NCBI GenBank assembly: GCA_963796275.1
Contig: CAWCKY010000006.1
Span: forward strand, 192,001 to 256,000
Origin: an uncultured Acidobacteriota bacterium
GTDB lineage: Bacteria; Acidobacteriota; Blastocatellia; RBC074
Length of the DNA: 64,000 nucleotides
Direction of reading: 5' to 3'
In this document: positions 20,401 through 39,892 of the stretch, piece by piece
Position numbering within the stretch: position 1 is the stretch's first letter
Layout: each line of letters begins with the position of its first letter
Made by a program: the position numbers and the translations under genes
Notes under the pieces: model-generated
What the model was told of the DNA's origin: nothing
Databases searched by the model: none
Seen by the model: only the letters and a program-made list of their open reading frames with translations

Positions 20401-23400
20401 AGCCGGCGCCTGGCGCGCCTTCCTGAAGGAGAGGGTGCCGGAGTACATGACGCCGTCGGCCTTCGTGACGCTCGACGCATTGCCGTTGACGCCGAACGGG
20501 AAGATCGATCGGCGCGCGCTTCCGGCTCCCGAAAAGGCGCGCCTCGACTTGGAGAGCGCCTTTGTCGCGCCGCGCAATCCGGTCGAGGAGTTGTTGGCGG
20601 AGACCTGGGCCAGTGTCCTCGGGGTGGAGAGAGTGGGAATTCACGATAACTTCTTCTCGCTGGGCGGACACTCATTGCTGGCCATGAAACTGATCACGCG
20701 AATGCGTGGGATCTTCCAGGTGGAACTGTCGCTGCGCCAACTTTTTGAAAAGCCGACGGTGGCGCAATTGGCGGCAGCGATCGTCGGGATGACGAAGCCC
20801 GGGCTGGATCTGCCGCCGATCACGCCGATCCCACGCGATCGGGAACTACCGCTCTCGTTTTCGCAGCAGCGGTTGTGGTTTCTCGATCAACTGGAGCCTG
20901 GCAACTCTTTCTACAACGTGCCCGCGCCGGTGCGCCTCACGGGCGAGCTCAATGTGGCGGCGCTCCGGCAAACCATTGGCGAAATCATCAGACGTCACGA
21001 AGTCTTGCGGACGGTCTATCAAACAGTCGAGGGGAGTCCGGTACAGGTGATCACAAACTCATACTCATTCACGCTGCCGGTGGTTGATTTGAGAGGGGTG
21101 GCGGAAGAGGAACGAGAGGCGACGGTCGCGCGTCTGGTCACGGAAGACTCCCTGCGGCCCTTCGATCTGGCCGAAGGCCCATTGTTCAGAGTCGCATTGC
21201 TGCAATTGGGGGCCGAGGATCATGTTTTGCTATTTACCACGCACCACATCATCTCCGACGTCTGGTCCAAGGGGGTGCTGACGCGAGAGGTTGCGGCGCT
21301 CTATCAGGCATTCGCCGAAGGAAGACCGTCGCCGCTGCCGGAATTGGCGGTTCAGTATGCCGATTTCGCGCACTGGCAACGGGGATGGTTGCAGGGAGAG
21401 GTTCTCGATGAGCAGTTGTCATACTGGAAGCGGCAATTGGCGGGCAGCCCATCAGTTTTGCAATTGCCCACGGATCGTCCGCGGCCAGCCGTTCAATCAT
21501 ATCGGGGGGCCGACCTGGCGATGGCGTTACCCGAAGGGCTGTCGCGGGCGGTGGTGGGATCTGAGCAGGCGCGAGGGCGTCACCCTCTTTATGACGCTGT
21601 TGGCGGCTTATCAAGCGATGCTGTTCCGCTACACAGGGGAGGAGAGCATCAATGTCGGCTCTCCCATCGCGGGCCGCACGCGCCCGGAGACGGAGGGGAT
21701 GATCGGGTTTTTCCTGAACACGCTGGTGTTCCGGACGGATTTTTCGGGCGACCCGAGCTTTCGCGAGTTGTTGCGGCAGGTGCGAGAGACATCGCTGGAA
21801 GCATACGCCCATCAGGATTTGCCCTTCGAGCAATTGGTAGAGGCGTTGCAACCTGAACGGAAGATGAGCCACTCGCCGCTGTTTCAGGCGGCCTTCGTGA
21901 TGCTCAATCTTGCAACGGAGGCGGTGGAGCTTCCGGGTCTGAAGATGCGGCCTGTGAGGGGGGAGGGAAATAGCGCGAAATACGATTTGACACTGTTCGT
22001 CATCGAAGGCCGCGATGGACTGACGGCGAACGTGGAGTACAGCGCCGATCTGTTCGAGGCCTCTACCATGGCGAGGATGTTGGAGCATTTCTTCGTGTTG
22101 CTGGAAGGCTTGATCGCCAACCAGGATCAGCGTGTGTCATCTCTGCCGCTGATGACCAGTGCGGAACGTAACCGCCTATTGTCAGAGTGGAATGGCACTG
22201 TGTCTGAGTATCCACGCCATGAATGCGTTCATGAGTTATTCGAGACGCAGGTTGAGCGTAGACCTGAAGCGATTGCGATAGTGGGCGAGGAAAATCACCT
22301 GACCTATGGAGAACTCAACCGACGCGCAAATCAACTGGCGCATTACCTGCTTAAGCATGGCGCCGGGCCGGAGACGCCGGTGGCTATCTGCGTTGAGCGT
22401 TCTTCGAAGATAGTTTTGGGATTCTTGGGCATACTTAAGGCGGGCGCCGCCTTTGCACCACTGGATCCAGCCTATCCTGAAGACCGCCTGGCCTTCATAC
22501 TCAATGATGTCCGGGCGCCGCTGCTCTTGACCCAGGAGCGGCTGGTCGAAGAATTACGAAACACCGGAAACGGAACGCACAATACGGAGAGTTATGCTCA
22601 AAACTCCATATTCAAACCTCAATACTCAATCTCCGATCTGCGCGCTGGAGACGGAAGGCGGAATGCGAGTAGTATCGCTCAAGACTCAATCTTCAATCCT
22701 CAAGACTCAATCTCCGATCTGCACGCTGGAGATGGAAGGCGGAATGCGAGTAGTATCGCTCAAGACTCAATCTTAATACCCCACCACCCAACCTCCGAAC
22801 CGCATTCCGCATTCCGCGTTCCCGAAGCGGTCTGTCTGGACTCAGACTGGGAGTTCATCGCCCTGGAAAGCCAGCAGAATCCAACCTGCATAGCTGCGCC
22901 TGAAAACCTGGCTTATGTCATCTATACCTCGGGTTCAACTGGCGCTCCTAAAGGTACGCCGATAACACACAGGAATCTCAGCCCACTAATGCACTGGAGC
23001 AAGGAATATTTCAACCTCGGCGAGTGCACGAAGGTACTGCAAAATCTCAACTGCTGTTTTGATTTTGGCGTTTTCGAGCTATTAACCACAGTCCTATTTG
23101 GCGGGACATTACATTTTGTGGATGGAGATGGGCTGAGTGATTTTTCAGAGTATGCCAGCTATATCAATAGACATCGAATTAATACCATTCATTCTACTCC
23201 GTCATTCGTTAGGAATCTTCTCCCTTTTAGTGATGAACTGGAGAATCTGGAAACGATTCACCTCGGCGGCGAGCCGTTAACGGGGGATTTGGTTGATAAG
23301 GTATTCAATAAAGTCGGAGGCGATTGCGTACTCTACAACGGCTACGGCCCTACTGAAGCCACCGTCAATTGTTCCATCTTTAGAATCGGTAATTGGTCAA

Positions 23401-24341
23401 CCTGGATTGATAGAGCTTTGACGAATATTCCGATTGGGAAAGCGTCAGCCAATAATCTTCTCTATATCCTCGATAAGAATTGCGAACCTGCGCCTATAGG
23501 TATCCCTGGAGAACTATATGTTGGCGGCGGAGGGTTGACTCGCGGCTACCTCGATCGAGCCGCGTTGACCGCCGAAGCATTCGTCCCCAACCCCTTCAGT
23601 CATGAACCAGGTGCGCGGCTATACAAGACTGGCGACCTGGCTCGATACCTGTCCGACGGGAACATAGAGTTCCTGGGCCGCAGCGACCATCAAGTCAAAG
23701 TCCGCGGCTTTCGTATCGAATTGGCGGAGATCGAAGCGGTATTGGCTCAACACCCGGCCGTCCGGGAAGCCGTCGTGTTGGCCCGCGAGGAGGTGGCCGG
23801 CGAGAAACGACTGGTGGCGTACGTCGCGCTCGATCCTATCGAGGGGGGCGCCGCGCCAAACGGCGTAAAACTGAGAAGCTACTTGCGGCAAAGGCTGCCT
23901 GAGTACATGACGCCGTCCGTCTTCGTCGAATTGGGCGCCCTGCCGCTGACGCCGAACGGGAAGGTGGATCGCCGTGCGCTTCCGGCTCCCGAGAAGACGC
24001 GCCCGGATTTGGAGAGCGCATTCGCCGCGCCTCGCAATCCAATAGAAGAAAAGCTGGCCGAAATCACCGCGCAGATTCTCCGGATCGAAAAGCCAGGGAT
24101 TCACGACAATTTCTTTGAATTGGGCGGGCATTCGTTATTGGCGACTCAGTTCATATCCCGCGTGCGCAACGCTTTCCAGGTGGAGTTGACTCTGCGGAGC
24201 GTTTTTACCGGACCCACGATCGCCGAACTTGCCGAAGCGATTGAGAAGGCCAGGGATGGCGGACTTGAGCCGGCCGCGCCCGCGATGAAAGCAATTCCCA
24301 GAGAGACAAGACGGGTCAAAACCACAACATTATCCAAATGA
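14425..24341 (+). CDS. Trimodular NRPS I-A-T-C-A-T-C-A-T, interrupted by two equivalent 1-nt frameshifts (~18355, ~21557)
   Basis: GFRLSPQQ / LPSLCAD I domain; three A domains (codes DFWHFGQVDK, DATQIALIDK, DFFHHGGVNK); three GGHSLL PCPs; two HHIISDVWS C domains. ORFs 14425-18654, 18089-21856 and 21291-24341 fuse if one G is removed from gtggtg(g)gatctg in each copy. Confidence 0.88.
15787..19347 (+). repeat. ~370-bp near-identical direct repeat (15787-16154 vs 18980-19347), A-domain N-terminus
   Basis: Both begin gtcgagtggaacgataccaaagttgaatatccg and run to cagcagcggctgctcga. Confidence 0.9.
16771..22157 (+). repeat. ~2.19-kb near-identical direct repeat (16771-18955 vs 19973-22157): A C-terminus, PCP and C
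   Basis: Constant 3202-bp offset; identical shadow ORFs in the ORF track; few differences, mostly in the PCP (IARKLEVF vs ITRMRGIF). Confidence 0.95.
22596..22774 (+). repeat. In-frame 81-bp tandem repeat (2 full copies plus partial) inside an A domain
   Basis: Units start at 22596, 22677, 22758; encode AQ[N/D]SIF.PQ.SISDL.AGDGRRNASSI. Confidence 0.9.
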
Positions 24342-27136: not shown

Positions 27137-30100
27137 ATGGATATTTCGGATCAGATTTCGGATCAGGATGTTTATGTCTTCCCAGCCTCTTTCGCACAGC
27201 GAAGGATGTGGTTCCTGGATCAATTCCAGCCCGGAAGCCCTTTCTACAATGTTCCAATGGCGGTTCGCATTAAAGGCGCGTTGCGCGTAGCTGCGCTGGA
27301 ACAGGTGATTAAGGAGATCGTCCGGCGGCACGAGTCCTTGCGCACCACTTTCGCCGTCATGGACGGCGAGCCGGTTCAGGTGATCCATAAAGACGGGCCG
27401 GCGATGGACATCGTCCTGGACCGAGTGGATATTCATCGTTTGCCGGCACCTGAGCGAGAGGCTGAAATCCATCGCCGGGTAATGGCGGAAGCTCAACTGC
27501 CTTTTAACCTCTCTGAAGGGCCTTTGTTGCGGGCGACGTTACTGAAACTGGGAGAGCGAGACCACGCGTTCCTGCTGACAATGCACCACATCGTCTCTGA
27601 CGCCTGGTCGCAGGGAGTCTTTATCCGGGAGATGGCGATTCTCTACGACGTGTTCTCCAAAGAGAAGCCATTGCCACTTCCCGATCTGCCTCTTCAATAC
27701 GCCGACTTCACGGAATGGCAGCGGGATTGGTTGCGGGGCGAGGTGATGGAGGCGCAGCTCAATTACTGGCGCGGGCGGTTGGGCGACAATCCTCCGCCGC
27801 TGATGCTTCCCACCGATTATCCTAGGCCGTCGGTGAATACCGCGCGCGGCGCCAAACTATCCCGCTCACTCTCGAAACCTCTGGCGAATACGCTGCAAAA
27901 GCTAAGCCGGCGCGAGGGCGCCACCCTGTTTATGACCTTGCTGGCTGCCTTCCAGGTTCTGCTGCATCGCTACACGGGCCAGGACGACATCAGCATAGGG
28001 ACGCCGGTCGCCAACCGCAACCGGGCCGAGATCGAAGGCCTGATCGGCTGTTTCATCAACACATTGGTTATGCGAACCAATCTCTCGGGCGATCCGAGCT
28101 TCCGCGAACTGTTGTGGCGCGCGCGTGAAGTGGCTCTAGGCGCTTACGCCCATCAGGACCTGCCTTTTGAAAAACTGGTTGAAGATCTCAAGCCCGAGCG
28201 GAATATGAGCCGCCAATCGTTCTTCCAAGTCATGCTAATTCTGCAGAACGTGCCCAGAAAGGTTGAAATCGGCGAGCATGGGCTGACGCTGAGCGTCTTG
28301 AAGATAGATAAGGGAACCTCGAACTTCGATCTGACCTTGACAATGGTGGAAGACTTCAAGGGGTTGATCGCGACGGCGGAATACAACACCGATCTTTTCG
28401 AAGCCGCGACCATCGAACGCCTGCTCCGACATTTTCAGACTTTGCTGGAAGGCGTTGTCGCCGACCCGGACCGGCGTATTTCAGATTTGCCCCTCCTGAA
28501 TGAGTCGGAGCAACGCCTGCTCTTGACCGCGTGGAATGATACAAGGGCGGCGTATCCGCGCAACAAATGCGTGCATGAGTTGTTCGAGGCGCAGGTGGAG
28601 CGAAGCTCCGACGCGATTGCGCTGGTGGTCGAGGAGGAGCAGCTTACCTACCGGGAGTTGAACCGCCGGGCCAATCAACTCGCCGCCTACCTCGGAAAGC
28701 TCGGGGTCGGGCCGGAAACGCCGGTGGGCTTTTGCCTGGAGCGTTCCCCGGAGATGGTCGTCGGTATCCTCGGCATCTTGAAGGCCGGTGGAACCTACGT
28801 GCCGTTAGACCCGGCGTATCCCAAAGAGCGCCTGGCCTTCATGCTGGAAGATACTCGGACGCCAGTGATCCTGACTCAGCAAAGGTTGATCGAGCACCTG
28901 CCGGAGCATCAGGCCAGTGTCGTTCGAATAGACGCAGACTGGGAATTGATGACAGAGGAGAGCGAGGCGAATCGGGCGAGCGGGGCGACAGCCGGTCATC
29001 TGGCCTACATCATGTACACTTCAGGCTCGACCGGCAGGCCGAAAGGGATCGCCATCCAGCACCGGGCCATCAACCGGCTGGTCTTCAATACCAACTACAT
29101 CGAGATAACGCCCGAGGACCGGATGCTGCTGGCGTCGAACTCGGCCTTCGACGCGGCGACCTTCGAGTTGTGGGGCGCGCTGCTGCACGGAGCGCGGCTA
29201 GTGGGGGTCAGCAGAGAGGCGGTCATATCGCCTCGGGAGCTCGCCGCCTCCATCCGGGATCACGGAATAAGCGCGATGTGGCTGACGGCGGCCCTCTTCA
29301 ATCAAATGACGCGCGAAGTCCCCAAGGCTTTCGGCGCCGTGAAACACCTGCTCATTGGGGGCGAGGCGCTTGATCCCCACCGGGTGCGAGAGGCGCTCAA
29401 GAATGACCCGCCCGCTCGGTTGGTGAACGGGTATGGGCCGACGGAGGGCACGACCTTCACTACCTGGTACCTGGCGCAAGAGGCGGCGGAAGGAGCGAGC
29501 TCCATTCCCATAGGTCGACCTATCTCTAACACGCAAACATATTTGTTGGATCGTAACCAACAGCCCACGCCCATAGGGATTGCGGGCGAGTTATACATCG
29601 GTGGGGATGGACTGGCGCGCGGTTATTTCAATAGGCCGGAGCTGACGGCGGAGAAGTTCGTCCCGAATCCATATAGCGAGCGGCCGGGCGCGCGGCTCTA
29701 CCGGACGGGAGACCTGGTCCGTTACCTGCCGGATGGCGCGATTGAGTTCCTGGGGCGGCTCGATCATCAGGTGAAGCTCCGCGGTTTCCGCATAGAGTTG
29801 GGCGAGATCGAGACCACGCTACAACAGCATCCGGCGATTCAGGAAGCAGTAATTCTGGCCAGGGAGGATGAGCCTGGTAATAAGCGCTTAGTAGCTTATC
29901 TAGTAAGCGTAGGGGATGCGGCGCCCACCATTGAGGAGTTGCACAGTTTTCTGCGGCAGAAACTGCCCTGGTATATGGCGCCGAGTGCTTATGTCTGGCT
30001 GGAGTCCCTGCCGGTGACTCCGAATGGGAAGATTGACCGGCGCGCCCTGCCCGCACCGGATAAGACGCGGCCGCAGTTGGAAGCAGCCTTCGTCGCGCCT

Positions 30101-30391
30101 CGCACCCCAACGGAAGAACAGTTGGCCGCAATCTACGCAGAGGTTCTGGGTCTTGAGCGAGTGGGCATCAGCGACCATTTCTTCGATCTTGGCGGTCACT
30201 CGCTGCTTGCCACGCAGGTGATTTCCCGCGTTCGTCAGTCTTTCGAGATAGAACTCCCTTTGCGCTCCCTCTTTGAAACTCCCACGGTAGCCGGACTTGC
30301 CGAAAACATTGAATCAATCCTGTGGGCGGCGCATCGCTCACAGTCCACCCTCGACTCCGCGGCAGATGACCGGGAAGAGGGAGAAATCTAA
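27137..30391 (+). CDS. NRPS module C(LCL)-A(Val)-PCP
   Basis: HHIVSDAWS; code DAFWLGGTFK (Val type); GGHSLLATQ; acidic docking tail DREEGEI. Confidence 0.93.
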   Translation: MDISDQISDQDVYVFPASFAQRRMWFLDQFQPGSPFYNVPMAVRIKGALRVAALEQVIKEIVRRHESLRTTFAVMDGEPVQVIHKDGPAMDIVLDRVDIHRLPAPEREAEIHRRVMAEAQLPFNLSEGPLLRATLLKLGERDHAFLLTMHHIVSDAWSQGVFIREMAILYDVFSKEKPLPLPDLPLQYADFTEWQRDWLRGEVMEAQLNYWRGRLGDNPPPLMLPTDYPRPSVNTARGAKLSRSLSKPLANTLQKLSRREGATLFMTLLAAFQVLLHRYTGQDDISIGTPVANRNRAEIEGLIGCFINTLVMRTNLSGDPSFRELLWRAREVALGAYAHQDLPFEKLVEDLKPERNMSRQSFFQVMLILQNVPRKVEIGEHGLTLSVLKIDKGTSNFDLTLTMVEDFKGLIATAEYNTDLFEAATIERLLRHFQTLLEGVVADPDRRISDLPLLNESEQRLLLTAWNDTRAAYPRNKCVHELFEAQVERSSDAIALVVEEEQLTYRELNRRANQLAAYLGKLGVGPETPVGFCLERSPEMVVGILGILKAGGTYVPLDPAYPKERLAFMLEDTRTPVILTQQRLIEHLPEHQASVVRIDADWELMTEESEANRASGATAGHLAYIMYTSGSTGRPKGIAIQHRAINRLVFNTNYIEITPEDRMLLASNSAFDAATFELWGALLHGARLVGVSREAVISPRELAASIRDHGISAMWLTAALFNQMTREVPKAFGAVKHLLIGGEALDPHRVREALKNDPPARLVNGYGPTEGTTFTTWYLAQEAAEGASSIPIGRPISNTQTYLLDRNQQPTPIGIAGELYIGGDGLARGYFNRPELTAEKFVPNPYSERPGARLYRTGDLVRYLPDGAIEFLGRLDHQVKLRGFRIELGEIETTLQQHPAIQEAVILAREDEPGNKRLVAYLVSVGDAAPTIEELHSFLRQKLPWYMAPSAYVWLESLPVTPNGKIDRRALPAPDKTRPQLEAAFVAPRTPTEEQLAAIYAEVLGLERVGISDHFFDLGGHSLLATQVISRVRQSFEIELPLRSLFETPTVAGLAENIESILWAAHRSQSTLDSAADDREEGEI

Positions 30392-30407: not shown

Positions 30408-33400
30408 ATGAAAACCATTGAGCTTCTGTCCCGCCTTCGCGGTCTCGACGTTAAACTTTGGACCGAGGCTGAACGACTGCGCTATAGCGCGCCTGACGGC
30501 GTGATAACACCGGCCCTGCGCGCGGAGATGGCTGAACGCAAGACGGATATTCTTGCATTTCTGCGCCGGGCGGAAGCGGCAGTGAAGCCCGCCGCTCCCG
30601 CCATCCTGCCGGTCTCACGCAATGGCGAGGCGCCGTTATCTTTCGCTCAGCAGCGGTTGTGGGTTCAAGAACAACTGTCACCAGGCAGCGCTCTCTACAA
30701 CATCTCCCAGGCAATTCAAGTGAATGGTGGGCTCAATGTAACCGCGCTCGAGCTAACTTTGAACGAGATCGTGCGGCGACACGAAATTTTGCGCACGACT
30801 TTCGCGGCGCCCGATTTCCAGGTGAGCGGAAATCCCGTTCAAGTTATCGTTCCAACGCTTCGTCTGGCGCTGCCGATAGTAGACCTCCAGGAATTCCGGG
30901 AGACGGAACGAGAGGCGGAAACCTGGCGTCTGGCCGCGAGTGAGGCCGGTCGGCCTTTCGATCTTTCCCGAGGGCCGCTCCTGCGCGCCGTCTTGTTGCG
31001 GCTGGGTCGGAAGCGCCACGTGGTTCTCTTCACCCTGCACCACATCATCAGCGACGGCTGGTCAATGGGCGTGCTGGCGCGAGAAATGGGAACGCTTTAC
31101 GAATCCTTCGCCGACGGCCGCCCTTCGCCATTGCCGGAGTTGCCTATCCAGTATGCGGACTTTGCGTACTGGCAGAGGCAATGGCTACAGGGAGAGACGC
31201 TCGCGGCTCAGCTCTCTTACTGGAGGCGGCATCTGGGGGGCGCCCCTGCCTCCCTGGAATTGCCTACGGATCGTCCGCGACCGGCGGTTCAAACCTTTCG
31301 GGGGGCGCATCAACCACTGGCGCTGTCCGCTACTTTATCCGGCTCGCTCAAGGAGCTAAGTCGCCGGGAAGGCGTGACGTTATTCATGACATTATTGGCA
31401 GCGTTCAATACGCTGCTCTATCGTTGCACGGGCCAGGAGGACATCGTTGTCAGCACGCCCACTGCAGGTCGCGCCAATGTCGAACTCGAAGGGTTGATTG
31501 GTTTCTTTATCAACAAGCTGATGCTGCGCGCCGATCTTTCGGGCGATCCGAGTTTCAGTGAATTGCTGGGTCGGGTGCGCGAGATGGTCTTGGGAGCATT
31601 CGCCAACCAGGACGTCCCATTCGAAAAACTGGTGGACGAACTACAGCCGGAGCGGGACCAAAGCCGCACGCCCTGGACTCAGACGGCATTCGTTTTACAG
31701 AGCGCCTCGACCGCATCGCTTGCGGCTCCGGGCCTGATCTTCAGCCCGCTAAAAATCGAAAGCGCGACGGCCAAGACGGATTTGATCCTATCTCTGTCGG
31801 AGCGCCCAGCCGGACTCCAAGGCTCGTTCGAGTTCAACACGGATATTTTCGAGGCTTCGACCATCGCTCGGATGGCCGGCCATTTCCAAACAATGTTGGA
31901 GAGCATCGTCGCTGACCCGGAGCAACGCATCTCGATGCTCGCTCCCTCGCCTGGGATGCTGTTATCTTCGGTCAAACCGTCCCGCATGGATGAACTCGAT
32001 CAACTCTACGCAGGCTCGAACCTGACAAAAAATCAGCTCCTGATCTGGACCGGGCAGAAATTAAGGCCGGATGCGCCAATCTACAACGCGGCGTTGTCCT
32101 TCGTTATCCAGGGTAAGATTTCGCTCGAGAACTTCCAGCGAGCGTTTCAGACGCTGGTCAATTCCAGCGACGCTTTGCGCACAGTGATCGAGGAGAGAGA
32201 CGGCGTCCCGCGGCAACGAGTCATCCCTGATCTACCCTACGCCGTCGAATACCTCGACTTTTCACAGAAAGTTGATCCTGAAGCGGAGTTTGATTCCTGG
32301 ATGTATCAACGACGTATTGCGCCGTTCGACTTCGCGAAACGCTTATTCGATACAGCCCTGATAAAGCTATCGGACGGGAAATTCGCCTGGTATCTAAATC
32401 AGCACCACATTATCTGTGACCATCAGTCGATCTGGTTGATCTTTCAACGGATGTCTGAATTCTACGGGCGCGCTCTGGAGGGGCGGTTGGAAGAGAAGGT
32501 GAAACTGCCCGTCTTTCAAGATTACCTGGATTACGAACGAGAGTATCGGAGCTCATTGCAGTATCTGAAATCAAGGGCCTATTGGGAGAGGAAACTAACC
32601 GACGAGCCTGAGCCGATTGCGTTCTATGGCAAAGTTCCTCATAAGCCGACGACGCGCATCCGACATGTGACTTATAAGCTGGATTCAGAACGAACACGAA
32701 AGCTTAAGGTCCTTGCGCTTTCCGCGGACGTCTTCGTGAAGACGGAGAAAGCATCGCTGTTTAATGTATTGGCCGTGGTTCTTGGGGTCCATCTCTATCA
32801 CATCAGTGGAAGCCGGCGCTTTTCGCTCGGAGTCGCGTCTCACAATCGTCGTTCGGAGGCATTCACAGAGACGATCGGCGTTCTCATGGAGGTTCATCCG
32901 CTGTACCTGGCGATTGAGGGCGACGATACGTTCCTTTCGTTGGTTAAAAAAGTGGCGGCCGAAGCACGAGAAACCCTAAAGCATAGCGAATTCATTATCA
33001 GTAAGAAGGCTTATGACGTATTTCTCAACTACCGTACAGCGAAATTTTCCGAGTTCGATGGCGCGCCGGCGCATCTGAAGAGGATTCACTCCGGACACGA
33101 AACTGACAGCTTAACCCTCAATTTGCACGAGGACGCTTCAACTGGAAACTTCGTTCTGGGTTTCGATTTTCATTGCGATGTTTTCAACGAGGAGCAGCGG
33201 AGCCATACGATTCAATGCTTTCTCAAAATTTTGGATTCTTTTTTGGAGGATCGTACGCAATCAATAGATCGTGTTGATCTTCTCTCGGCTGAGGAGAGAC
33301 AACGCATCCTGGTCGGGTTCAATCATAAAGAAGTGATATTTCCCGAAGACCAGACCATCACACGACTCTTTGAAAAGCAGGTCGAAGAAACGCCGGCGAA

Positions 33401-33497
33401 AATCGCCGCAGTTTACCAGGACGTTTCTCTGACTTTTCAGGAGTTAAACGAACAGGCGGATAAGTTAGCTAATTTGATCAGGAGGTTAAATAAATGA
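30408..33497 (+). CDS. NRPS: TubC-type N-terminal docking domain - C(LCL) - atypical second C domain - N-terminal stub of an A domain
   Basis: MKTIELLSRLRGLDVKLW...LRYSAP; HHIISDGWS; WYLNQHHIICDHQS; ends after the A1 motif LTFQELNEQADKLA. ATG 30408 preferred over TTG 30297. Confidence 0.88.
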   Translation: MKTIELLSRLRGLDVKLWTEAERLRYSAPDGVITPALRAEMAERKTDILAFLRRAEAAVKPAAPAILPVSRNGEAPLSFAQQRLWVQEQLSPGSALYNISQAIQVNGGLNVTALELTLNEIVRRHEILRTTFAAPDFQVSGNPVQVIVPTLRLALPIVDLQEFRETEREAETWRLAASEAGRPFDLSRGPLLRAVLLRLGRKRHVVLFTLHHIISDGWSMGVLAREMGTLYESFADGRPSPLPELPIQYADFAYWQRQWLQGETLAAQLSYWRRHLGGAPASLELPTDRPRPAVQTFRGAHQPLALSATLSGSLKELSRREGVTLFMTLLAAFNTLLYRCTGQEDIVVSTPTAGRANVELEGLIGFFINKLMLRADLSGDPSFSELLGRVREMVLGAFANQDVPFEKLVDELQPERDQSRTPWTQTAFVLQSASTASLAAPGLIFSPLKIESATAKTDLILSLSERPAGLQGSFEFNTDIFEASTIARMAGHFQTMLESIVADPEQRISMLAPSPGMLLSSVKPSRMDELDQLYAGSNLTKNQLLIWTGQKLRPDAPIYNAALSFVIQGKISLENFQRAFQTLVNSSDALRTVIEERDGVPRQRVIPDLPYAVEYLDFSQKVDPEAEFDSWMYQRRIAPFDFAKRLFDTALIKLSDGKFAWYLNQHHIICDHQSIWLIFQRMSEFYGRALEGRLEEKVKLPVFQDYLDYEREYRSSLQYLKSRAYWERKLTDEPEPIAFYGKVPHKPTTRIRHVTYKLDSERTRKLKVLALSADVFVKTEKASLFNVLAVVLGVHLYHISGSRRFSLGVASHNRRSEAFTETIGVLMEVHPLYLAIEGDDTFLSLVKKVAAEARETLKHSEFIISKKAYDVFLNYRTAKFSEFDGAPAHLKRIHSGHETDSLTLNLHEDASTGNFVLGFDFHCDVFNEEQRSHTIQCFLKILDSFLEDRTQSIDRVDLLSAEERQRILVGFNHKEVIFPEDQTITRLFEKQVEETPAKIAAVYQDVSLTFQELNEQADKLANLIRRLNK

Positions 33498-34816
33498 TTC
33501 GAAACAGGCAATATGTAATCAAAAGATCAGAGCTCCAGTCCATTGAGGCTTTGCCCGAGGTGATTGGAAAAATGTTAGGCGACAAGGCTCTCCGCTGGTA
33601 CATCGGCCAAGTTACCGATGACGAAATCGTCGTTGAAGCGACGATTTGCGATGAACGGATCGGCCATTTCAGCGAATCGGTGGTCGCTCACCATTATCCG
33701 GGTAAAAGCGTCGTTCTAAGCATTATCCCGACCGGCGTCGGTTGTAATCTCGGCGGCTACGCCGGCGATGCCGCGCCAGCCACCAGCTTGCTGGCCTCGA
33801 CCGCGGACTATTTGATCACGAATCCCAACGCAGTCAATGCTTCGGACTTTATCAAGATGGATGACAATGTCGTCTACACCGAAGGCTTCTCAATCGACCT
33901 ATTTTGTCAGGGGCTCGTTAATCTGTACCGGCCATACTCAAACAGAGTCGGTCTGATCATTGAAAAAACGGTTGCCAGCGGGCTGGACGTCGTTTTCAAC
34001 ATTCTCAACGCGGTGAGAGCGACGCACGGAGTCGATATCCAGGATTACGTGATCACGGACCAGCCAATTGGCGGACGCTGCGTCGAGAACAATGTCGGAG
34101 CGTTTGTCGGAACGATTGATAACCCCGGCGTATTGTTTGAAGCTTGCGAAAAACTGATAGCAAAAGGCGTTGACGCTATTGCTGTCACGAGCAATATTCA
34201 AGACTTGCCCGCGGAAAACTATGCGAAGCATTTCGCCGGCGAGTATCCAAACCCCGTCGGCGGCGTTGAAGCGGTCATCTCACACTTGATTACCAAGCGA
34301 TTTCAGGTACCTGCGGCTCACGGGCCACTGCTGAATATAAAGCAGCTGGACCTGGCGCGTAACATAGTTGACGCCAGGGGAGCCGGCGAGATGGCGTCTC
34401 TAAGCGGCCTGGCTTGCGTGTTGATCGGCCTGAAAAGAGCGCCGCAGATCACGCCTCGGCCGGATAGCCGTGTCGCGGACATAATCAATATCAATAACCT
34501 CCTGGCGATAGTGACACCGGCGGGTTGTCTGGGAAGCATTCCCGTGCTCTCCACGAGGAAATACAAGATACCCGTAATTGCCGTCCGGGAGAATGAAACG
34601 ATCTTGAATATTACTCAGTCAATGGTTCGGTTGAATAACGTTGTCGAGGTAAGCAACTACGCCGAAGCCGCCGGCATCATCCTGGCTTTGAAGAAGGGGA
34701 TAAGTCTCGAAGGCATATCAAGACCTTTACGAACATTGAGACATTCGGTTGGAGCGGAGAGTCAGGATCAGCTGAGCGGGAGGGGGGATGCTTATGAGGA
34801 ACAACTCGTCGCATAG
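33494..34816 (+). CDS. DUF3326-family protein of unknown function
   Basis: IPTGVGCNLGGYAGDA, NPNAVN, GGVEAVISH, CVLIGLKRAP, VIAVREN, NYAEAAG match the family pattern as I recall it; overlaps both neighbours. Confidence 0.8.
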   Translation: MIRNRQYVIKRSELQSIEALPEVIGKMLGDKALRWYIGQVTDDEIVVEATICDERIGHFSESVVAHHYPGKSVVLSIIPTGVGCNLGGYAGDAAPATSLLASTADYLITNPNAVNASDFIKMDDNVVYTEGFSIDLFCQGLVNLYRPYSNRVGLIIEKTVASGLDVVFNILNAVRATHGVDIQDYVITDQPIGGRCVENNVGAFVGTIDNPGVLFEACEKLIAKGVDAIAVTSNIQDLPAENYAKHFAGEYPNPVGGVEAVISHLITKRFQVPAAHGPLLNIKQLDLARNIVDARGAGEMASLSGLACVLIGLKRAPQITPRPDSRVADIININNLLAIVTPAGCLGSIPVLSTRKYKIPVIAVRENETILNITQSMVRLNNVVEVSNYAEAAGIILALKKGISLEGISRPLRTLRHSVGAESQDQLSGRGDAYEEQLVA

Positions 34817-37800
34817 TTTGATCGGACTGATGGCCGACCGGCGTCCCGATCTGTTAATAGGGATGCTTGGAATATTGAAGTCCGGAAGCGGTTTTGCGCC
34901 GATAGATCCGGATTATCCGGACGAACGGATCAATTACATCATTGACGACTGCCGGATCGAGATTCTGGTCACAGAAGAAAAACGCCTGGCCAGGGCGATT
35001 GAAATCTCCAGGAAAAGCCCTACGCTGAAGAATATTATCTGCCTGGATAAGGTGAGGAGGAAGGAGGCTGCCCATCGCGATGAGGTTCAGATTTACGATT
35101 GTAACGATTATGCCGCCAAAGAACGGGCGCCGGAAAAGTGCGACGTAGAGCCTGATCAGTTGGCCTATGTGATCTATACCTCAGGGTCGACCGGCGTTCC
35201 CAAAGGCGTTCCGATCACACATAGAAATCTCAGCCCGTTGTTATGCTGGAGCAAGGAATATTTCAACCTCGGCGAATGCACGAAGGTACTGCAAAATCTC
35301 AACTACTGCTTTGATTTCGGAGTCTTCGAGTTACTAACTACTGTCCTTTTCGGTGGAACATTACATTTCGTGGACAGAGATGAGTTGAGCGATTTTGCGG
35401 AGTATGCCGGCTATATCGATAAACACAGAATCAATACCATCCACTCCACTCCGTCATTTTTTAGAAATCTTCTTACCTTTAGTGACAAGCTGGAGAGTCT
35501 GGAAACGCTCCACCTGGGTGGTGAGCCATTAACCGGGAACATGGTTGATGAGGTATTTAACAAAGTCGGAAGCGGCTGTGTTCTATACAACGGCTATGGT
35601 CCTACTGAAACAACCATCAATTGTTCCATCTTTGAGGTCGGCAATAGGTCAGCCTGGAAGGATAAGGCTTTCGCGAATATCCCGATCGGGAAGCCGTCGG
35701 CCAATAATTTGATCTATATCTTAAACAAGGGATGCGAACCTGCGTTGCCCGGCGCGCCGGCAGAACTTTATGTTGGCGGCGCCGGATTGGCTTACGGTTA
35801 TCTCAATCGAGCTGATCTCACTGCCGAACGCTTCGTCCCCAACCCCTTTAGCAAAGAACCGGGCGCTCACATGTACCGAACCGGGGACCTGGCTCGCTAT
35901 ATGCCCAACGGCGCCATCGAGTTTTTAGGTCGCATCGACGACCAGGTGAAGGTGCGCGGCTTCCGCATTGAACTGGGAGAGATTGAATCGGCGTTGAGTG
36001 GGCATCCCGCCGTTCAAGAAACGGTGGTTATGGCCCTAGGGGGCGTGGACGGCAATAAGCGCCTGGTGGCTTACCTCGTTCCTAAATCGGAGGTTGTGCC
36101 GGCCATCAGCGAGCTGCGTAGTTTTCTACAAGAGAAGCTGCCCGAGTATATGATGCCCTCAGCTTATGTTTTTCTCGGCGCCTTGCCGCTGACGCCCAAC
36201 GGCAAGGTGGATAGGCGAGCTTTGCCGGAACCCGATCAGACTCGACCGGAGTTGGCTAATCACTTGGTCGCCCCACGCGACCGGAAAGAGGAAATCCTGG
36301 CTGAGATTTGGGCAGAGGTCATCGGCGTCGAGCGAGTGGGCGTCTACGATAACTTCTTCGAGTTGGGCGGAGATTCCATGAAAAGCATTCAGGTGGTGGC
36401 CCGCGCCAACCGGGTGGGACTCCACTTCACACCCGCCCAGTTGTTCCAGCATCCCACGATTGCAAAGTTGGTTCAGTCAGCTGGCGCTTCTGAACCAACA
36501 CGGGCGGAACAGGGCATCGTCACGGGGCCGGTTCCGCTGACGCCGATTCAGCGCTCCTTCTTTGAACGGCAATTGGTGGATCCGCATCACTGGAATTGGT
36601 CCTTCCTGCGCGAAACGCCGCAACCTTTGAATCCCGCGCTGCTGGAACAGGCCATCAAGCATTTGCTCGGCCATCATGACGCATTGCGCTTGCGGTTCTA
36701 TCACTCAGAGTCAGGCTGGCGGCAATTCAACCACGGTTTAGATGAAAGCGCGCCTTTAACATTCATTGATCTGTCGCAGTTTGGACGTGAAGAACAGGTC
36801 GCGGCCCTGGAATCCACTGCCGCCGCGCTGCAGGGCAGTTTGAACCTTTCGGAAGGGCCATTGATGCGTGTGGCCTACTTCATGATGGGCGGAAAGCAGA
36901 CTGATCGCGCGTTGCTGATCTTCCACCATCTGGCGGTTGATGTGGTTTCAGCCCACATCCTGATGGAAGACTTCCAGACGATCTATCGGCAACTCAGTCT
37001 CGGTGAAGCGGTCGAACTCCCGCCCAAGACGACCTCTTTCCGCCAATGGTCGTTGCGGTTGGCCGAGCATGCGCAATCGAGTGAGTTGAAACAGGAGTTG
37101 AGTTACTGGATGGAAAGTTTGAGCGGCGAAAGACCGTCTTTACCACTCGATTACCCGACGGGCGTTAACAGCGAGGCTTCGTCCGCAGCGGTTTTGACCG
37201 CGTTCAGCGTGGATGAGACGCGGACGCTGTTGCAGGAGCTGCCGGCGGCTACCGGCGCACGGATGCAGGATTTCTTGCTGACGGCGCTCACCCGGTCGTG
37301 GGCGCGGTGGACGGGGCAGCAGCGGCTGCTCGTTGATGTAGACGGGCACGGGCGCGAATACATACTGGATGACGTGGACCTCTCGCGGACAGTGGGCTGG
37401 TTTACGAGCGTCTATCCAATGTTGTTGGACATTGGTGACGCGGCTGAGCCGGGCGAGGCGCTGCGTATTATTCAAGCGCAAATGCGGCGCGTTGCGAATC
37501 GGGGAATCGGCTTTGGTCTGTTGCGCTATCTCTGCGATGACGAGGAAGTGAGAAGGCGAATGAGCGCGGCGCCGCGAGCCGAAGTGAATTTCAATTTTCA
37601 GGGACAGCTTGATCAGCTTGATCAGCAGGGGGCCAATCGCAATGGTATGTCATTCCGGCAGGCGCGGGAAAACAAGGGACCGGAGCGGAGCTTGAGAGGG
37701 CAGAGGAGTTATCGGCTCTATGCAGTGGGGAATGTGCGTGGCGGGGTGTTGAGTATGCGCTGGAGCTACAGCGCGAACCTGCACAAGCGGAGCACGATCG

Positions 37801-37859
37801 AACGCCTGGCCGCGAGTTTCGCTAAGGAATTGCGGCGTCTGATCGCACACTGTCTCTAG
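34788..37859 (+). CDS. NRPS: remainder of split A domain - PCP - terminal (degenerate) E domain
   Basis: Starts just before A2 (GILKSGSGFAPIDPDYP); code DFFHHGGINK; GGDSMKSIQ; HHLAVDVVS, DGHGRE, RTVGWFT, FNFQGQ; SD gggaggggg before ATG. Confidence 0.9.
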   Translation: MLMRNNSSHSLIGLMADRRPDLLIGMLGILKSGSGFAPIDPDYPDERINYIIDDCRIEILVTEEKRLARAIEISRKSPTLKNIICLDKVRRKEAAHRDEVQIYDCNDYAAKERAPEKCDVEPDQLAYVIYTSGSTGVPKGVPITHRNLSPLLCWSKEYFNLGECTKVLQNLNYCFDFGVFELLTTVLFGGTLHFVDRDELSDFAEYAGYIDKHRINTIHSTPSFFRNLLTFSDKLESLETLHLGGEPLTGNMVDEVFNKVGSGCVLYNGYGPTETTINCSIFEVGNRSAWKDKAFANIPIGKPSANNLIYILNKGCEPALPGAPAELYVGGAGLAYGYLNRADLTAERFVPNPFSKEPGAHMYRTGDLARYMPNGAIEFLGRIDDQVKVRGFRIELGEIESALSGHPAVQETVVMALGGVDGNKRLVAYLVPKSEVVPAISELRSFLQEKLPEYMMPSAYVFLGALPLTPNGKVDRRALPEPDQTRPELANHLVAPRDRKEEILAEIWAEVIGVERVGVYDNFFELGGDSMKSIQVVARANRVGLHFTPAQLFQHPTIAKLVQSAGASEPTRAEQGIVTGPVPLTPIQRSFFERQLVDPHHWNWSFLRETPQPLNPALLEQAIKHLLGHHDALRLRFYHSESGWRQFNHGLDESAPLTFIDLSQFGREEQVAALESTAAALQGSLNLSEGPLMRVAYFMMGGKQTDRALLIFHHLAVDVVSAHILMEDFQTIYRQLSLGEAVELPPKTTSFRQWSLRLAEHAQSSELKQELSYWMESLSGERPSLPLDYPTGVNSEASSAAVLTAFSVDETRTLLQELPAATGARMQDFLLTALTRSWARWTGQQRLLVDVDGHGREYILDDVDLSRTVGWFTSVYPMLLDIGDAAEPGEALRIIQAQMRRVANRGIGFGLLRYLCDDEEVRRRMSAAPRAEVNFNFQGQLDQLDQQGANRNGMSFRQARENKGPERSLRGQRSYRLYAVGNVRGGVLSMRWSYSANLHKRSTIERLAASFAKELRRLIAHCL

Positions 37860-37940: not shown

Positions 37941-39293
37941 ATGGAGCAAATTAAACAGAAGACTGTAATAGTAAATTTGATCGCAAGTATGACCGCCTTT
38001 GAACCGGTTGCAGCGCCGGCGAGAGAGAAGACCGCGCCGGCGCGTCCTGACAAGCTGCTGAATCGAAATTTCGTTTTACTCTGGATGGGGCAGGCCGTCA
38101 GTCAATTGGGCTCGCAGGTCTATGTGATAGCGATGATGTTCTGGATCAAACACGCCACCGACTCCGCCAGTTTGATCGGGTCAATGATGATGCTCTCCAG
38201 CATTCCGAATGTGATTCTCAGCGGGATCGGCGGCGCATTCGCCGACCGCCATTCTCGCCGCAAAATCATCGTTTGCAGCGATCTGTTGAGAAGCGGTCTC
38301 GTTCTCTCAATGGCGGGACTGCTCTATCTGGCGCCTAACGCCACGGATACCATCATTGTCTGGTTCATGGGAGTGACGTTTTGCATGTCCGCCACGGCGG
38401 CGTTTTTTACTCCGGCGATGTCGGCCGCGATTCCCGACCTGACGCCGCAGAGCGCAATTGGAAAGGCGAACTCATTACGCCAAACCACCGCGCAGTTGGC
38501 CATATTTATCGGGCAAGGGTTGGGCGGGATGCTTTTTCGCCTTTTGGGGGCGCCGTTGCTCGTTTTGGTCAACGGCTTGAGCTTTCTGTTTGCCGCCGTC
38601 AGCGAATCCTTCATCAGAATTCCCCAGAAGATCCCGGAAAGGAGCGGCGGGCGAAAAGAGCGATTCGCCGCCTTCAAGAAGGAGATTGCGGAAGGATTGC
38701 GTTACGTATGGAAAGGGCCGGGGCTGAGACGGCTCTTTTTCTTTTCGGCTATCTTCAACTTTTTCACCATGCCGGTCGTCGTGCTTCTACCTTTTTACGT
38801 GGAGGATTTTCTAAAGCTACGAGTTGATTGGTATGGCTATTTGATCGCGACCTTCGGAGTTGGCGTACTGACGGGGGCATTATCCACCGGCTTCGTCAAG
38901 CTGAGGGGGAAAGTTCGCGGGAGATTGATGATCTGGTTTGCGATCTTCAACTCTCTGATCGTCGGGGCACTCGGTTTTGTTCCCGACGTGAAGGTCGCGC
39001 TTATTCTCGCGTTTCTGATGGGTGCGCTCGGTTCGTTCAACGGGATCAACATTGCGACGATCCTGCAATTGAGTACGCCGAGCGAGATTCGCGGGCGCGC
39101 ATTCGGATTGCTGCACACACTTTCGGGCAGTCTCGCACCGATCGGCATGGGGCTGGGTGGCTTCATGTACGACCTGGTAAATCAAGATATCACGCTCATC
39201 TATGCGGGATGCGGCGTGGTCATGGTTTTGTTATCACTCTTGGTCTCAATGAGCCGCGAATTCCGGGAATTTCTGGCTTACGAGCCGCAATAG
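37941..39293 (+). CDS. MFS efflux transporter (DHA3/EntS-like)
   Basis: [40 protein letters not shown]; about 12 TM segments; true start may be slightly downstream. Confidence 0.88.
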
Positions 39294-39304
39294 AAGGAGG
39301 AAAA

Positions 39305-39892
39305 ATGAATAGAGAAGAGAAAGAAGATACGACAGTCTACAAGGTGGTTTTGAACCACGAGGAGCAGTATTCGATCTGGCCTGAATACAAGGAGAACCCG
39401 CTGGGTTGGAAGGATATCGGGAAGGCAGGACCGAAAGCCGAATGTCTGGCCTACATCAAGGAGGTATGGACGGATATGAGACCGCTCAGTCTCAGGCGAA
39501 AGATGGAAGAGTTGGCTAGAAATCCTCTTCCTCCGCTTCCGCCACCAGATCCTGACAGGCCGCGCGAGAAGAGCCTCGTGCAGAGGCTCAGCGAGGGCGA
39601 TCATCCCGTCGAAGTCAGCCTACGCCCTGAAAAGACGGCAAAGCTCTTCAAAGAGGCAGTCGACCGCGGCTACGTGCATATAAAGTTTACTGACACCCGG
39701 GGAGGCACGGAATTGGGCGTCAGACTCGATCGGGAGGCGACTGATCTGGGCAACGCTGACTTCGAGGGACAGACTGGCAGGGTTCGCCTGGCTGGAGGTT
39801 TGACGCTCGACTACGTAAAGGTTCGCCTCATCGCTGAAATAGACCTGAATACGCTGACAGGCAAAGGTCATCTCGATCCTGTAGTAGCCTAA
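39305..39892 (+). CDS. MbtH-like protein with a C-terminal extra domain
   Basis: [35 protein letters not shown]; SD aaggagg before ATG 39305; proline linker then ~110-aa extension. Confidence 0.92.

Follow-up and report, generated by a model that had tools for sequence, protein, structure and literature searches.

Why would a nonribosomal peptide synthetase (NRPS) place two condensation (C) domains one directly behind the other, ahead of a single adenylation (A) domain and a single carrier (T) domain? The question is raised by open reading frame (ORF) 30408-33497 of the stretch of DNA analysed here (the window, 64,000 nucleotides from an uncultured Acidobacteriota bacterium, G000:C6:192001-256000), which forms the downstream end of a hybrid polyketide synthase (PKS)-NRPS cluster of ~110 kb. 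The ORF encodes 1029 aa, counted from the ATG chosen in a preliminary description of the locus, in the order docking domain, first C domain (C1), linker, second C domain (C*) and stub of an A domain. We assign C* with high confidence, from its closest relatives, as an embedded starter-type C domain (Cs), standing in tandem behind a C domain of the LCL type. Such an LCL-Cs tandem is a known but rare kind of arrangement, for which the icosalide synthetase IcoA and the megapolipeptin synthetase MgpC are precedents.

Two condensation domains ahead of one carrier

The module and the subunit preceding it are composed as follows.

27137..30391, + strand: upstream C-A-T subunit with a short C-terminal tail after T (Pfam Condensation, AMP-binding and PP-binding; tail from the translation)
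30408..30587, + strand: TubC_N-type N-terminal docking domain (PF18563, 2.6e-18, aa 5-53)
30612..31943, + strand: C1, ordinary LCL-type condensation domain, aa 69-512 (motif HHIISDGWS, aa 211-219, nt 31038-31064)
31944..32012, + strand: C1-C* linker of 24 residues, without A or T (domain map, printed sequence)
32013..33332, + strand: C*, assigned as embedded starter-type condensation domain, aa 536-975 (motif HHIICDHQS at 32403-32429)
33342..33494, + strand: A-domain stub of ~50 residues, A1 region only (AMP-binding profile positions 1-41 only, aa 988-1027)
33494..34816, + strand: DUF3326 gene inserted in the A domain, in another frame (PF11805, 1.1e-89)
34788..36227, + strand: A-domain remainder with pocket DFFHHGGIN (Pfam positions 47-384; pocket residues)
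36273..36497, + strand: T (carrier) domain (PP-binding, 8.9e-14)
36522..37856, + strand: epimerization (E) domain with HHLAVDVVS, end of the subunit (best solved relatives TycA-E, 5e-77, and GrsA-E, 1.5e-75)

Pfam recognises two Condensation stretches within ORF 30408-33497 (PF00668, 1.1e-164), and the 24-residue linker leaves no space for an A or T domain between them. Both C domains therefore stand before one A-T pair of the same module, the A domain of which is spread over two ORFs by the DUF3326 gene. The start of this gene overlaps the stop codon of the C1-C* ORF (33495-33497; ATGA overlap), and ORF 34788-37859, in the same frame as ORF 30408-33497, carries the A remainder, the T domain and the last C-family domain. 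The T domain at 36273-36497 would be the sole carrier that C1 and C* can both serve in cis, and the whole module reads, as predicted from its domains, dock-C1-C*-A(split)-T-E; the subunit at 27137-30391 is the presumed donor of the peptidyl chain to C1, handing it over at the docking domain. The succession given in the preliminary description, an LCL domain followed without A or T by a second C domain and then by the split A and DUF3326, is thus confirmed in all its elements by ORFs, Pfam matches and motif coordinates. Nor is the layout an assembly artefact, since the dock-C-C*-stub order is repeated in proteins of 1024-1041 aa from independent metagenomes (P0002-P0010) and the entire gene order on two metagenome contigs (L006 and L007), the A stub being conserved in all of them.

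The two C domains are of different types. C1 has its best PDB matches in the teixobactin C domains (Txo1/Txo2, 6e-110), and it groups at 99% with the genome's own LCL domains in a tree calculated by FastTree. This tree has 147 rows, namely the window, 117 domains of the C* family, 15 C domains taken from DUF3326 loci and 14 C or E domains of the genome, after exclusion of three hits in which C* is partial. In the case of C*, whose further motifs are LTKNQLLIW (nt 32022-32048), PIYN (nt 32076-32087) and WYLNQ-HHIICDHQS (nt 32388-32429), the top five PDB matches are the starter domains RzmA-Cs (7c1h/k/p, 7e-29 to 2e-27; 7C1H is RzmA-Cs, PMC7804268) and CDA-C1 (8e-25 and 1.5e-24), and the next-best match lies at 3e-17. 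In the same tree the C* family forms a single clade with 99% support, and its sister group, with 100%, consists of three starter-like C domains that are N-terminal in proteins of this genome; LCL, DCL-like and E domains lie apart, as do the C-like domains of the cluster that lack the motif histidines (HH-less domains). The starter-like nature of C*, first suspected from its motif context, is borne out by both its solved relatives and its clade. C* is the only domain of its type in the genome, and the family occurs in 3 of the 401 genomes of the phylum sample, the window's own included, too few for a statement on its distribution.

From large-scale data, starter C domains have been reported exclusively at pathway starts (PMC10212144); unlike them, C* begins at aa 536, behind the docking domain and the LCL domain. 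N-terminal starter domains (RzmA-Cs and CDA-C1; Cs-A-T-TE layouts, TE being a thioesterase domain) are its closest solved structures, from which it differs in its internal position behind another C domain and in carrying His for the Gly of its motif.

A C-family domain lying between a catalytic C and an A domain also recalls the domains that recruit tailoring enzymes, namely interface (I) domains, which lack the catalytic His and are paired with a trans beta-hydroxylase, and the X domains that recruit P450 enzymes in glycopeptide NRPSs. However, C* keeps HHxxxD, and its putative partner, DUF3326, does not co-vary with it. The X domain 4tx2 matches C* at 5e-4, against 7e-29 for the starter domains, and an I-domain identity is at odds with the retained HH and D and with a tree position apart from the HH-less domains of the cluster, a comparison made through these N-terminal C-like domains, so that the phylogeny is indirect. 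The location ahead of an unusual A domain and the non-canonical residue after HHxxxD could instead suggest a modifying C domain, dehydrating (C_modAA) or similar, that works on the T-bound residue, as had been considered in the preliminary description. We find this extremely improbable, because the C_modAA domain of AmbE (7r9x) is distant, matching C* at 4e-7 vs 7e-29 for RzmA-Cs, and the family members with ordinary Asn-, Gly- or Asp-type A domains are N-terminal starter domains.

In NCBIfam, the C*-stub region has its best full-length matches at the N-termini of MxcG and EntF, the C domains of which use free aryl carrier proteins. As starter-type C domains take their donors from separate proteins, these matches favour an arrangement in which a free-standing A-T or T acting in trans would serve as acceptor for C1 and donor for C*, inserting an extra residue before the residue loaded by the split A domain (X) and giving C1 a normal alpha-amine acceptor. 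Such a split module is improbable, however: no free-standing T or A-T was found in the ~110 kb cluster (one query plus Pfam on selected ORFs), where all T matches lie behind an A domain or PKS module, nor in the 20 kb around the tandem of another genome (G291), in which a highly reducing PKS ending in an acyl carrier protein is followed by C1-C*-A-T-C-A-T-R and both C motifs are canonical.

The embedded form across the family

How often does C* stand behind another C domain? A first search, limited to proteins of 565-1801 aa (120 listed; layouts for 117 hits and the window), placed it directly behind another C in 51 of 118 cases, at the N-terminus in 61 of 118 and in another position in 6 of 118. 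A second search, free of word index and length window, covered 1.84 billion representatives and gave 59,383 hits at E<=1e-3, the best 150 of which were analysed, yielding 131 proteins with 132 C*-family domains that score 250 bits or more (the representative set). Here C* is preceded by a strong LCL-like C in 66 of 132 cases, a weaker C in 12, another C* in 1, an ANL domain in 3 and a T domain in 1; 4 are unclear, and nothing precedes it in 45 of 132, which have the starter layout, an N-terminal C* followed by A-T. The embedded state is therefore the majority state of the subfamily (79/132, 60%), a result of this unbiased search that is new here. A member of the subfamily either opens its protein or forms the second half of a C-C pair, and hardly ever occupies the normal position behind a T domain; the single case of 132 behind a T domain may lend indirect support to a donor supplied in trans, by coenzyme A (CoA) or a carrier protein, over an in-line peptidyl carrier protein (PCP). 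Tandem and N-terminal forms are interleaved in the tree, with at least 6 supported changes between them. The embedded members come mostly from uncultured bacteria, with source names that include Acidobacteria, Chloroflexi, Ktedonobacteraceae and Binatia. One protein of 2243 aa (P0123) has three consecutive C domains: the first is a weak C, and the two that follow are C* domains, with the motifs HHxxxDA and HQxxxDC in this order.

In the window's own lineage the ratio of non-synonymous to synonymous changes (dN/dS) of C* is 0.20 and 0.22 against L006 and L007, respectively, next to 0.23 and 0.18 for C1, 0.19 and 0.19 for DUF3326 and 0.18 and 0.16 for the A remainder, and C* is thus under purifying selection as strong as that on the neighbouring parts. 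The preliminary description had considered, as the outcome that would overturn it, an ordinary starter domain acquired by recent fusion and without a link to DUF3326. This holds in part: C* indeed falls among starter C domains, and no exclusive link ties it to DUF3326, but the tandem is not a recent fusion, because it is the majority state of the family and is maintained by purifying selection (dN/dS ~0.2).

The same description had pointed to the His in place of the motif Gly (nt 32403-32429). This His does not define the domain: the residue after HHxxxD is H, Y, N, A or R in the 11-row clade of the window and G, A or another residue across the family, and the His is an unconserved, lineage-specific substitution. 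As the residue is not conserved, we rejected the His of HHIICDH as an extra catalytic residue. HH and D, by comparison, are retained in all 11 rows of the clade. The authors of the RzmA-Cs structure infer that the motif Gly makes room for the donor (PMC7804268); the substitution of His for Gly accordingly points to a donor channel that is altered or out of use in C*, rather than to a new catalytic residue.

A second acylation or an adaptor

The closest functional precedent is module 3 of IcoA from Burkholderia gladioli, with the order LCL, chain-initiating C, A(Ser) and PCP, as two reports describe it (PMC6553374, PMC10510592). There the embedded C domain N-acylates Ser-S-PCP with a 3-hydroxyacyl thioester, according to intact-protein mass spectrometry (PMC6553374), and the LCL domain is thought to esterify the new hydroxyl afterwards (PMC6553374, PMC10510592). 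The likeness lies in an LCL domain followed directly by a starter-clade C, without A or T in between, both serving one downstream carrier. On the other hand, IcoA loads Ser with an intact A domain, whereas the A domain of the window has the pocket DFFHHGGIN and is split by the DUF3326 gene; the window module also differs in its His for the motif Gly and in its docking and E domains, and no 3-hydroxyacyl donor can be inferred for it. The second precedent, the PKS-NRPS MgpC from Burkholderiales, is described as C-C-A-T-C-A-T-KS-KR-DH (KS, KR and DH being the ketosynthase, ketoreductase and dehydratase domains) with HHxxxDR in the second C, for which the authors propose a capping acylation (PMC11411415). 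MgpC differs from the window module in a Thr-type A domain, proposed to be iterative, and in having neither a split A nor DUF3326.

On this analogy, we consider the chances about even that the LCL-Cs-A-T arrangement is a double-condensation module of the kind of IcoA module 3 and MgpC, in which a second acylation leads to a branched product. That C* is an active second acyltransferase in this particular locus, so that the T-bound residue is acylated twice and becomes a branch, we put a little below even. In such a module, the upstream C-A-T subunit would dock on the TubC-type domain; the split A domain, stub and remainder together, would load X on T; C1, with its intact LCL character, would join the upstream peptide to X; and C* would add a second acyl group, from a CoA or carrier-protein thioester in trans, to the same T-bound residue. 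C* might acylate a second nucleophile of X or, as in IcoA, might acylate the alpha-amine first, with C1 then attacking by means of a nucleophile of the new acyl group. Either way the product would be branched at X, and the E domain would then epimerise the residue before the chain passed to a subunit starting with DCL. Acylation or branching was among the roles listed in the preliminary description, and it is the one that has precedents and that would fit the residues loaded by tandem modules, as follows.

We read nine A-pocket positions relative to the A4/A5 motifs, placing them by what we take to be the GrsA numbering; the extraction returned the well-known codes DILQLGLIW, DLFNNALTY and DVGEIGSID, which we took as a check. 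In counts where related sequences share labels, a pocket net charge of <=-2 is found in 25/30 tandem vs 4/47 N-terminal members of the first set and in 43/62 vs 10/37 of the representative set (Fisher 6e-5). The tandem pockets fall into the classes DIWE.TADD-like (~20; presumably 2,4-diaminobutyrate, Dab), DVGE.GS.D (12), D[AT]ED.G.. (~11; which we take to be Lys- or Orn-like), DVWH.SL.D (6) and DLKN.GTD. (3). DVGEIGSIDK has been given as ornithine (PMC3992020) and DVWHISLVDK predicted as serine by antiSMASH (PMC12964202). The A domains of N-terminal members are mostly of the Asn, Asp, Gly or aromatic type. These data suggest that tandem modules favour residues with a second nucleophile (Orn-, Dab- or Lys-like, and Ser), a preference new to this study that would mark them as branch-point modules and that fits two condensations on one carrier-bound residue.

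A number of observations weigh against an active, branch-forming C*. The sharing of labels among relatives limits the pocket counts, and independent contrasts of tandem state against acidic pocket did not confirm the association, with only 4 supported pairs and no significance (sign test, median p 0.625). In a literature look-up the Dab- and Lys-like code strings were not found, so these labels stay our own assumption. The pocket of the window module itself, DFFHHGGIN, has no acidic residue; the argument from two nucleophiles is carried over from related modules. The likeness of C* to the second C of IcoA and of MgpC is one of published description. No dedicated acyl-CoA ligase or free carrier protein adjoins the module. 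The motif Gly is lost and its site variable in the clade (Y, N, A or R in other members), and bulky residues after HHxxxD are commonest in proteins where C1-C* is separated from A-T. Finally, C* has a degenerate HHxxxD (the variants being HQ, HN, NH and loss of D) in 18/51 tandem vs 2/61 N-terminal copies of the first set (recount) and in 23/79 vs 5/45 of the representative set (Fisher 0.025), and many embedded copies may not condense at all. All five degenerate N-terminal representatives (5/5) have acidic pockets, which may make them tandems distributed over separate genes. In 48/51 tandem proteins HHxxxD is retained by the upstream C; judged by these motifs, C1 looks like the obligatory catalyst, whereas about a third of lineages seem to manage with a C* that lacks the canonical His. 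Gln may still position the amine there, or else the embedded domain is often non-catalytic.

The last possibility leads to an unlikely but serious alternative, namely that C* is a non-condensing structural or adaptor domain, forming the C:A interface that keeps the C1-C* protein on the separate A-T-E protein, shielding or positioning the T-bound residue, or offering a platform to an enzyme acting in trans, as the HH-less C-like domains of the cluster may do. The replacement of the motif Gly by variable, mostly bulky residues in the clade of the window and the higher share of degenerate motifs among embedded copies would both be in keeping with such a role, as would the purifying selection, which is equally expected of a structural domain. 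In addition, 12/79 tandem representatives end right after C* or the stub, which puts C* at a subunit junction; the cluster holds five N-terminal HH-less C-like domains and two TauD genes; and in PfaA, a fungal PKS-NRPS, both members of a C1-C2 tandem are required though one amide bond is made (PMC11731387). PfaA resembles the window in having two consecutive C domains ahead of A-T, and differs in being fungal, in following a PKS and in C types that, in the authors' account, are unrelated to the starter clade. Against an adaptor stand the conservation of HH and D in 11/11 members of the clade and in 56/79 embedded representatives, the activity of the embedded starter C domain of IcoA, the one tested (PMC6553374), and the capping acylation assigned by its authors to the HHxxxDR domain of MgpC (PMC11411415); moreover, the preference of tandem modules for residues with a second nucleophile is not explained by a structural role.

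If the double-condensation reading is extended to the whole family, LCL-Cs tandems could be a general, so far unrecognised branch-point module, X also having a second nucleophile and the products being two-tailed or branched peptides, with the HQ and non-Gly variants as derived forms with altered donor handling or as chaperones for self-cyclising diamino-acyl thioesters; we regard this extension as possible though somewhat doubtful. When product structures are predicted for NRPSs, each module is taken to perform a single condensation, and starter C domains are expected nowhere but at the beginning of a pathway (PMC10212144). If a further acyl group is indeed attached by the second C, the products of these clusters are branched, yet current tools would draw them as linear. 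The association of the tandem with Orn-, Dab-, Lys-like and Ser modules provides a testable rule, and the family-wide pattern, with its embedded majority and its two-nucleophile link, is the part worth following up.

DUF3326, the split A domain and the rest of the cluster

The preliminary description had joined the C-C* tandem to the DUF3326-split A domain, and the present analysis separates them. A scan of metagenome contigs with a DUF3326 alignment gave 181 relatives, and the domains around the best 80 of the 181 were mapped with the following result.

C1-C*-stub before DUF3326 (L006 and L007): 2 loci
single C-stub abutting DUF3326: 18 loci
upstream side lost at a contig end: 2 loci
DUF3326 free-standing beside NRPS genes: 9 loci
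close DUF3326 homologue in a locus without NRPS domain: 18 loci
distant DUF3326 homologue (~35% identity) without NRPS domain: 31 loci

C* thus precedes only 2 of the 20 split modules with a visible upstream domain; a single C domain stands in the other 18/20. Thirteen of these single C domains were placed in the tree, 10 of them forming an LCL-like clade, 1 being DCL-like and 2 belonging to another starter-like group, so they are of another type than C*, and most C-C* modules carry an intact A domain. Many of the single C-stub units have a distant ANL domain upstream. What is shared is the pocket: DF[FM][HN]HGG[IV]N is common to 15/15 A domains examined beside DUF3326 and recurs in an A domain of the window that is unsplit and follows a single C (22380-24000, third A domain of ORF 21291-24341). 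This shared pocket and the single-C majority indicate that DUF3326 tracks this A domain, presumably its substrate, and not C*. The unsplit paralogue has a low-complexity repeat insert between A2 and A3.

It is accordingly very improbable that C* is a recruitment platform for DUF3326 in the manner of X or interface domains, as the preliminary description had proposed. The two genes are indeed adjacent and translationally coupled by the ATGA overlap, and the arrangement is conserved in L006 and L007. Nevertheless, the single-C majority, the 9 loci with a free-standing DUF3326 beside NRPS genes and the pocket common to split and unsplit A domains all point the other way, as does the occurrence of DUF3326 alone in three cyanobacteria (61-66% identity), with no NRPS domain within 10 kb; in the species-genome collection the split form was found in one Acidobacteria metagenome-assembled genome. 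A prediction of the complex of C* (aa 530-978, 37-row alignment) with DUF3326 (65-row alignment) speaks neither for nor against (score 0.00, mark 0.32). In sum, C* is unlikely to recruit DUF3326, to dehydrate a residue or to bring in an extra residue loaded in trans.

Compared with the C-C* tandem, the A domain that is split by DUF3326 and has a conserved pocket of its own is the stranger feature of the locus and merits separate study. An AF2 model of DUF3326 (pLDDT 85) has no clear solved relative in the PDB by Foldseek (TM <=0.3), and a wide VIA-align comparison (Z <=9.2) matched generic Rossmann-like or GT-B halves, from which no function is readable. In the cyanobacteria, the stand-alone gene belongs to a conserved set of P-type ATPase, sulfotransferase, DUF3326 and an unknown 280-aa protein, neighbours that gave no hint about X. 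At three loci (L017, L039 and L041) the A remainder lies 2.5-5 kb downstream of the stub and DUF3326, with penicillin-amidase (PvdQ-like) genes in between and, at L017, also a lantibiotic-dehydratase-like gene. The ~50-residue A stub may be a docking piece between subunits.

Upstream of the window, a tailoring block (G000:C6:164943-171089) encodes a carbamoyltransferase, an ornithine carbamoyltransferase-like (OTC) enzyme, a PALP enzyme with an ornithine-cyclodeaminase-like partner (SbnA/SbnB-like) and a TauD protein. The SbnA/SbnB-like pair would supply diaminopropionate. As a clue to X it allows no conclusion, since within the available flanks the OTC-SbnA-SbnB trio precedes a DUF3326 module at only one other locus (L023).

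Five subunits of the cluster begin with an HH-less C-like domain of a clade of its own (window 2217-4688 and 14425-15750; G000:C6 142997, 160128 and 171161), PSLCAD replacing HHxxxD in ORF 14425. Each of them stands between a subunit ending in C and an A domain of the Asp or Glu type, the pocket being DLTKVGHVG in three cases. Together with the two TauD genes of the cluster, they look like interface domains for beta-hydroxylation, an arrangement that resembles the one reportedly described by Reitz et al. in 2019. At 9401-11806 of the window, a DCL-like condensation domain is fused to a TauD dioxygenase in one ORF of 801 aa.

ORFs 14425-18654, 18089-21856 and 21291-24341 overlap, their ends and starts being identical, which corresponds to a ~3.2 kb direct repeat of a C-A-T module; both copies show the same frame break inside the C domain, which may be a true frameshift present twice or else an error of assembly or an indel. 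Further mid-domain frame changes occur in the NRPS genes at G000:C6:174485-177420, 195738-197100 and 209626-214145. The assembly probably carries indel errors, so that ORF boundaries in the cluster are not trustworthy without a second source. Downstream of the module, at 39290-39892 of the window, an MbtH-like domain continues at its C-terminus into a fused extension of ~140 aa, which matches CBF_beta weakly.

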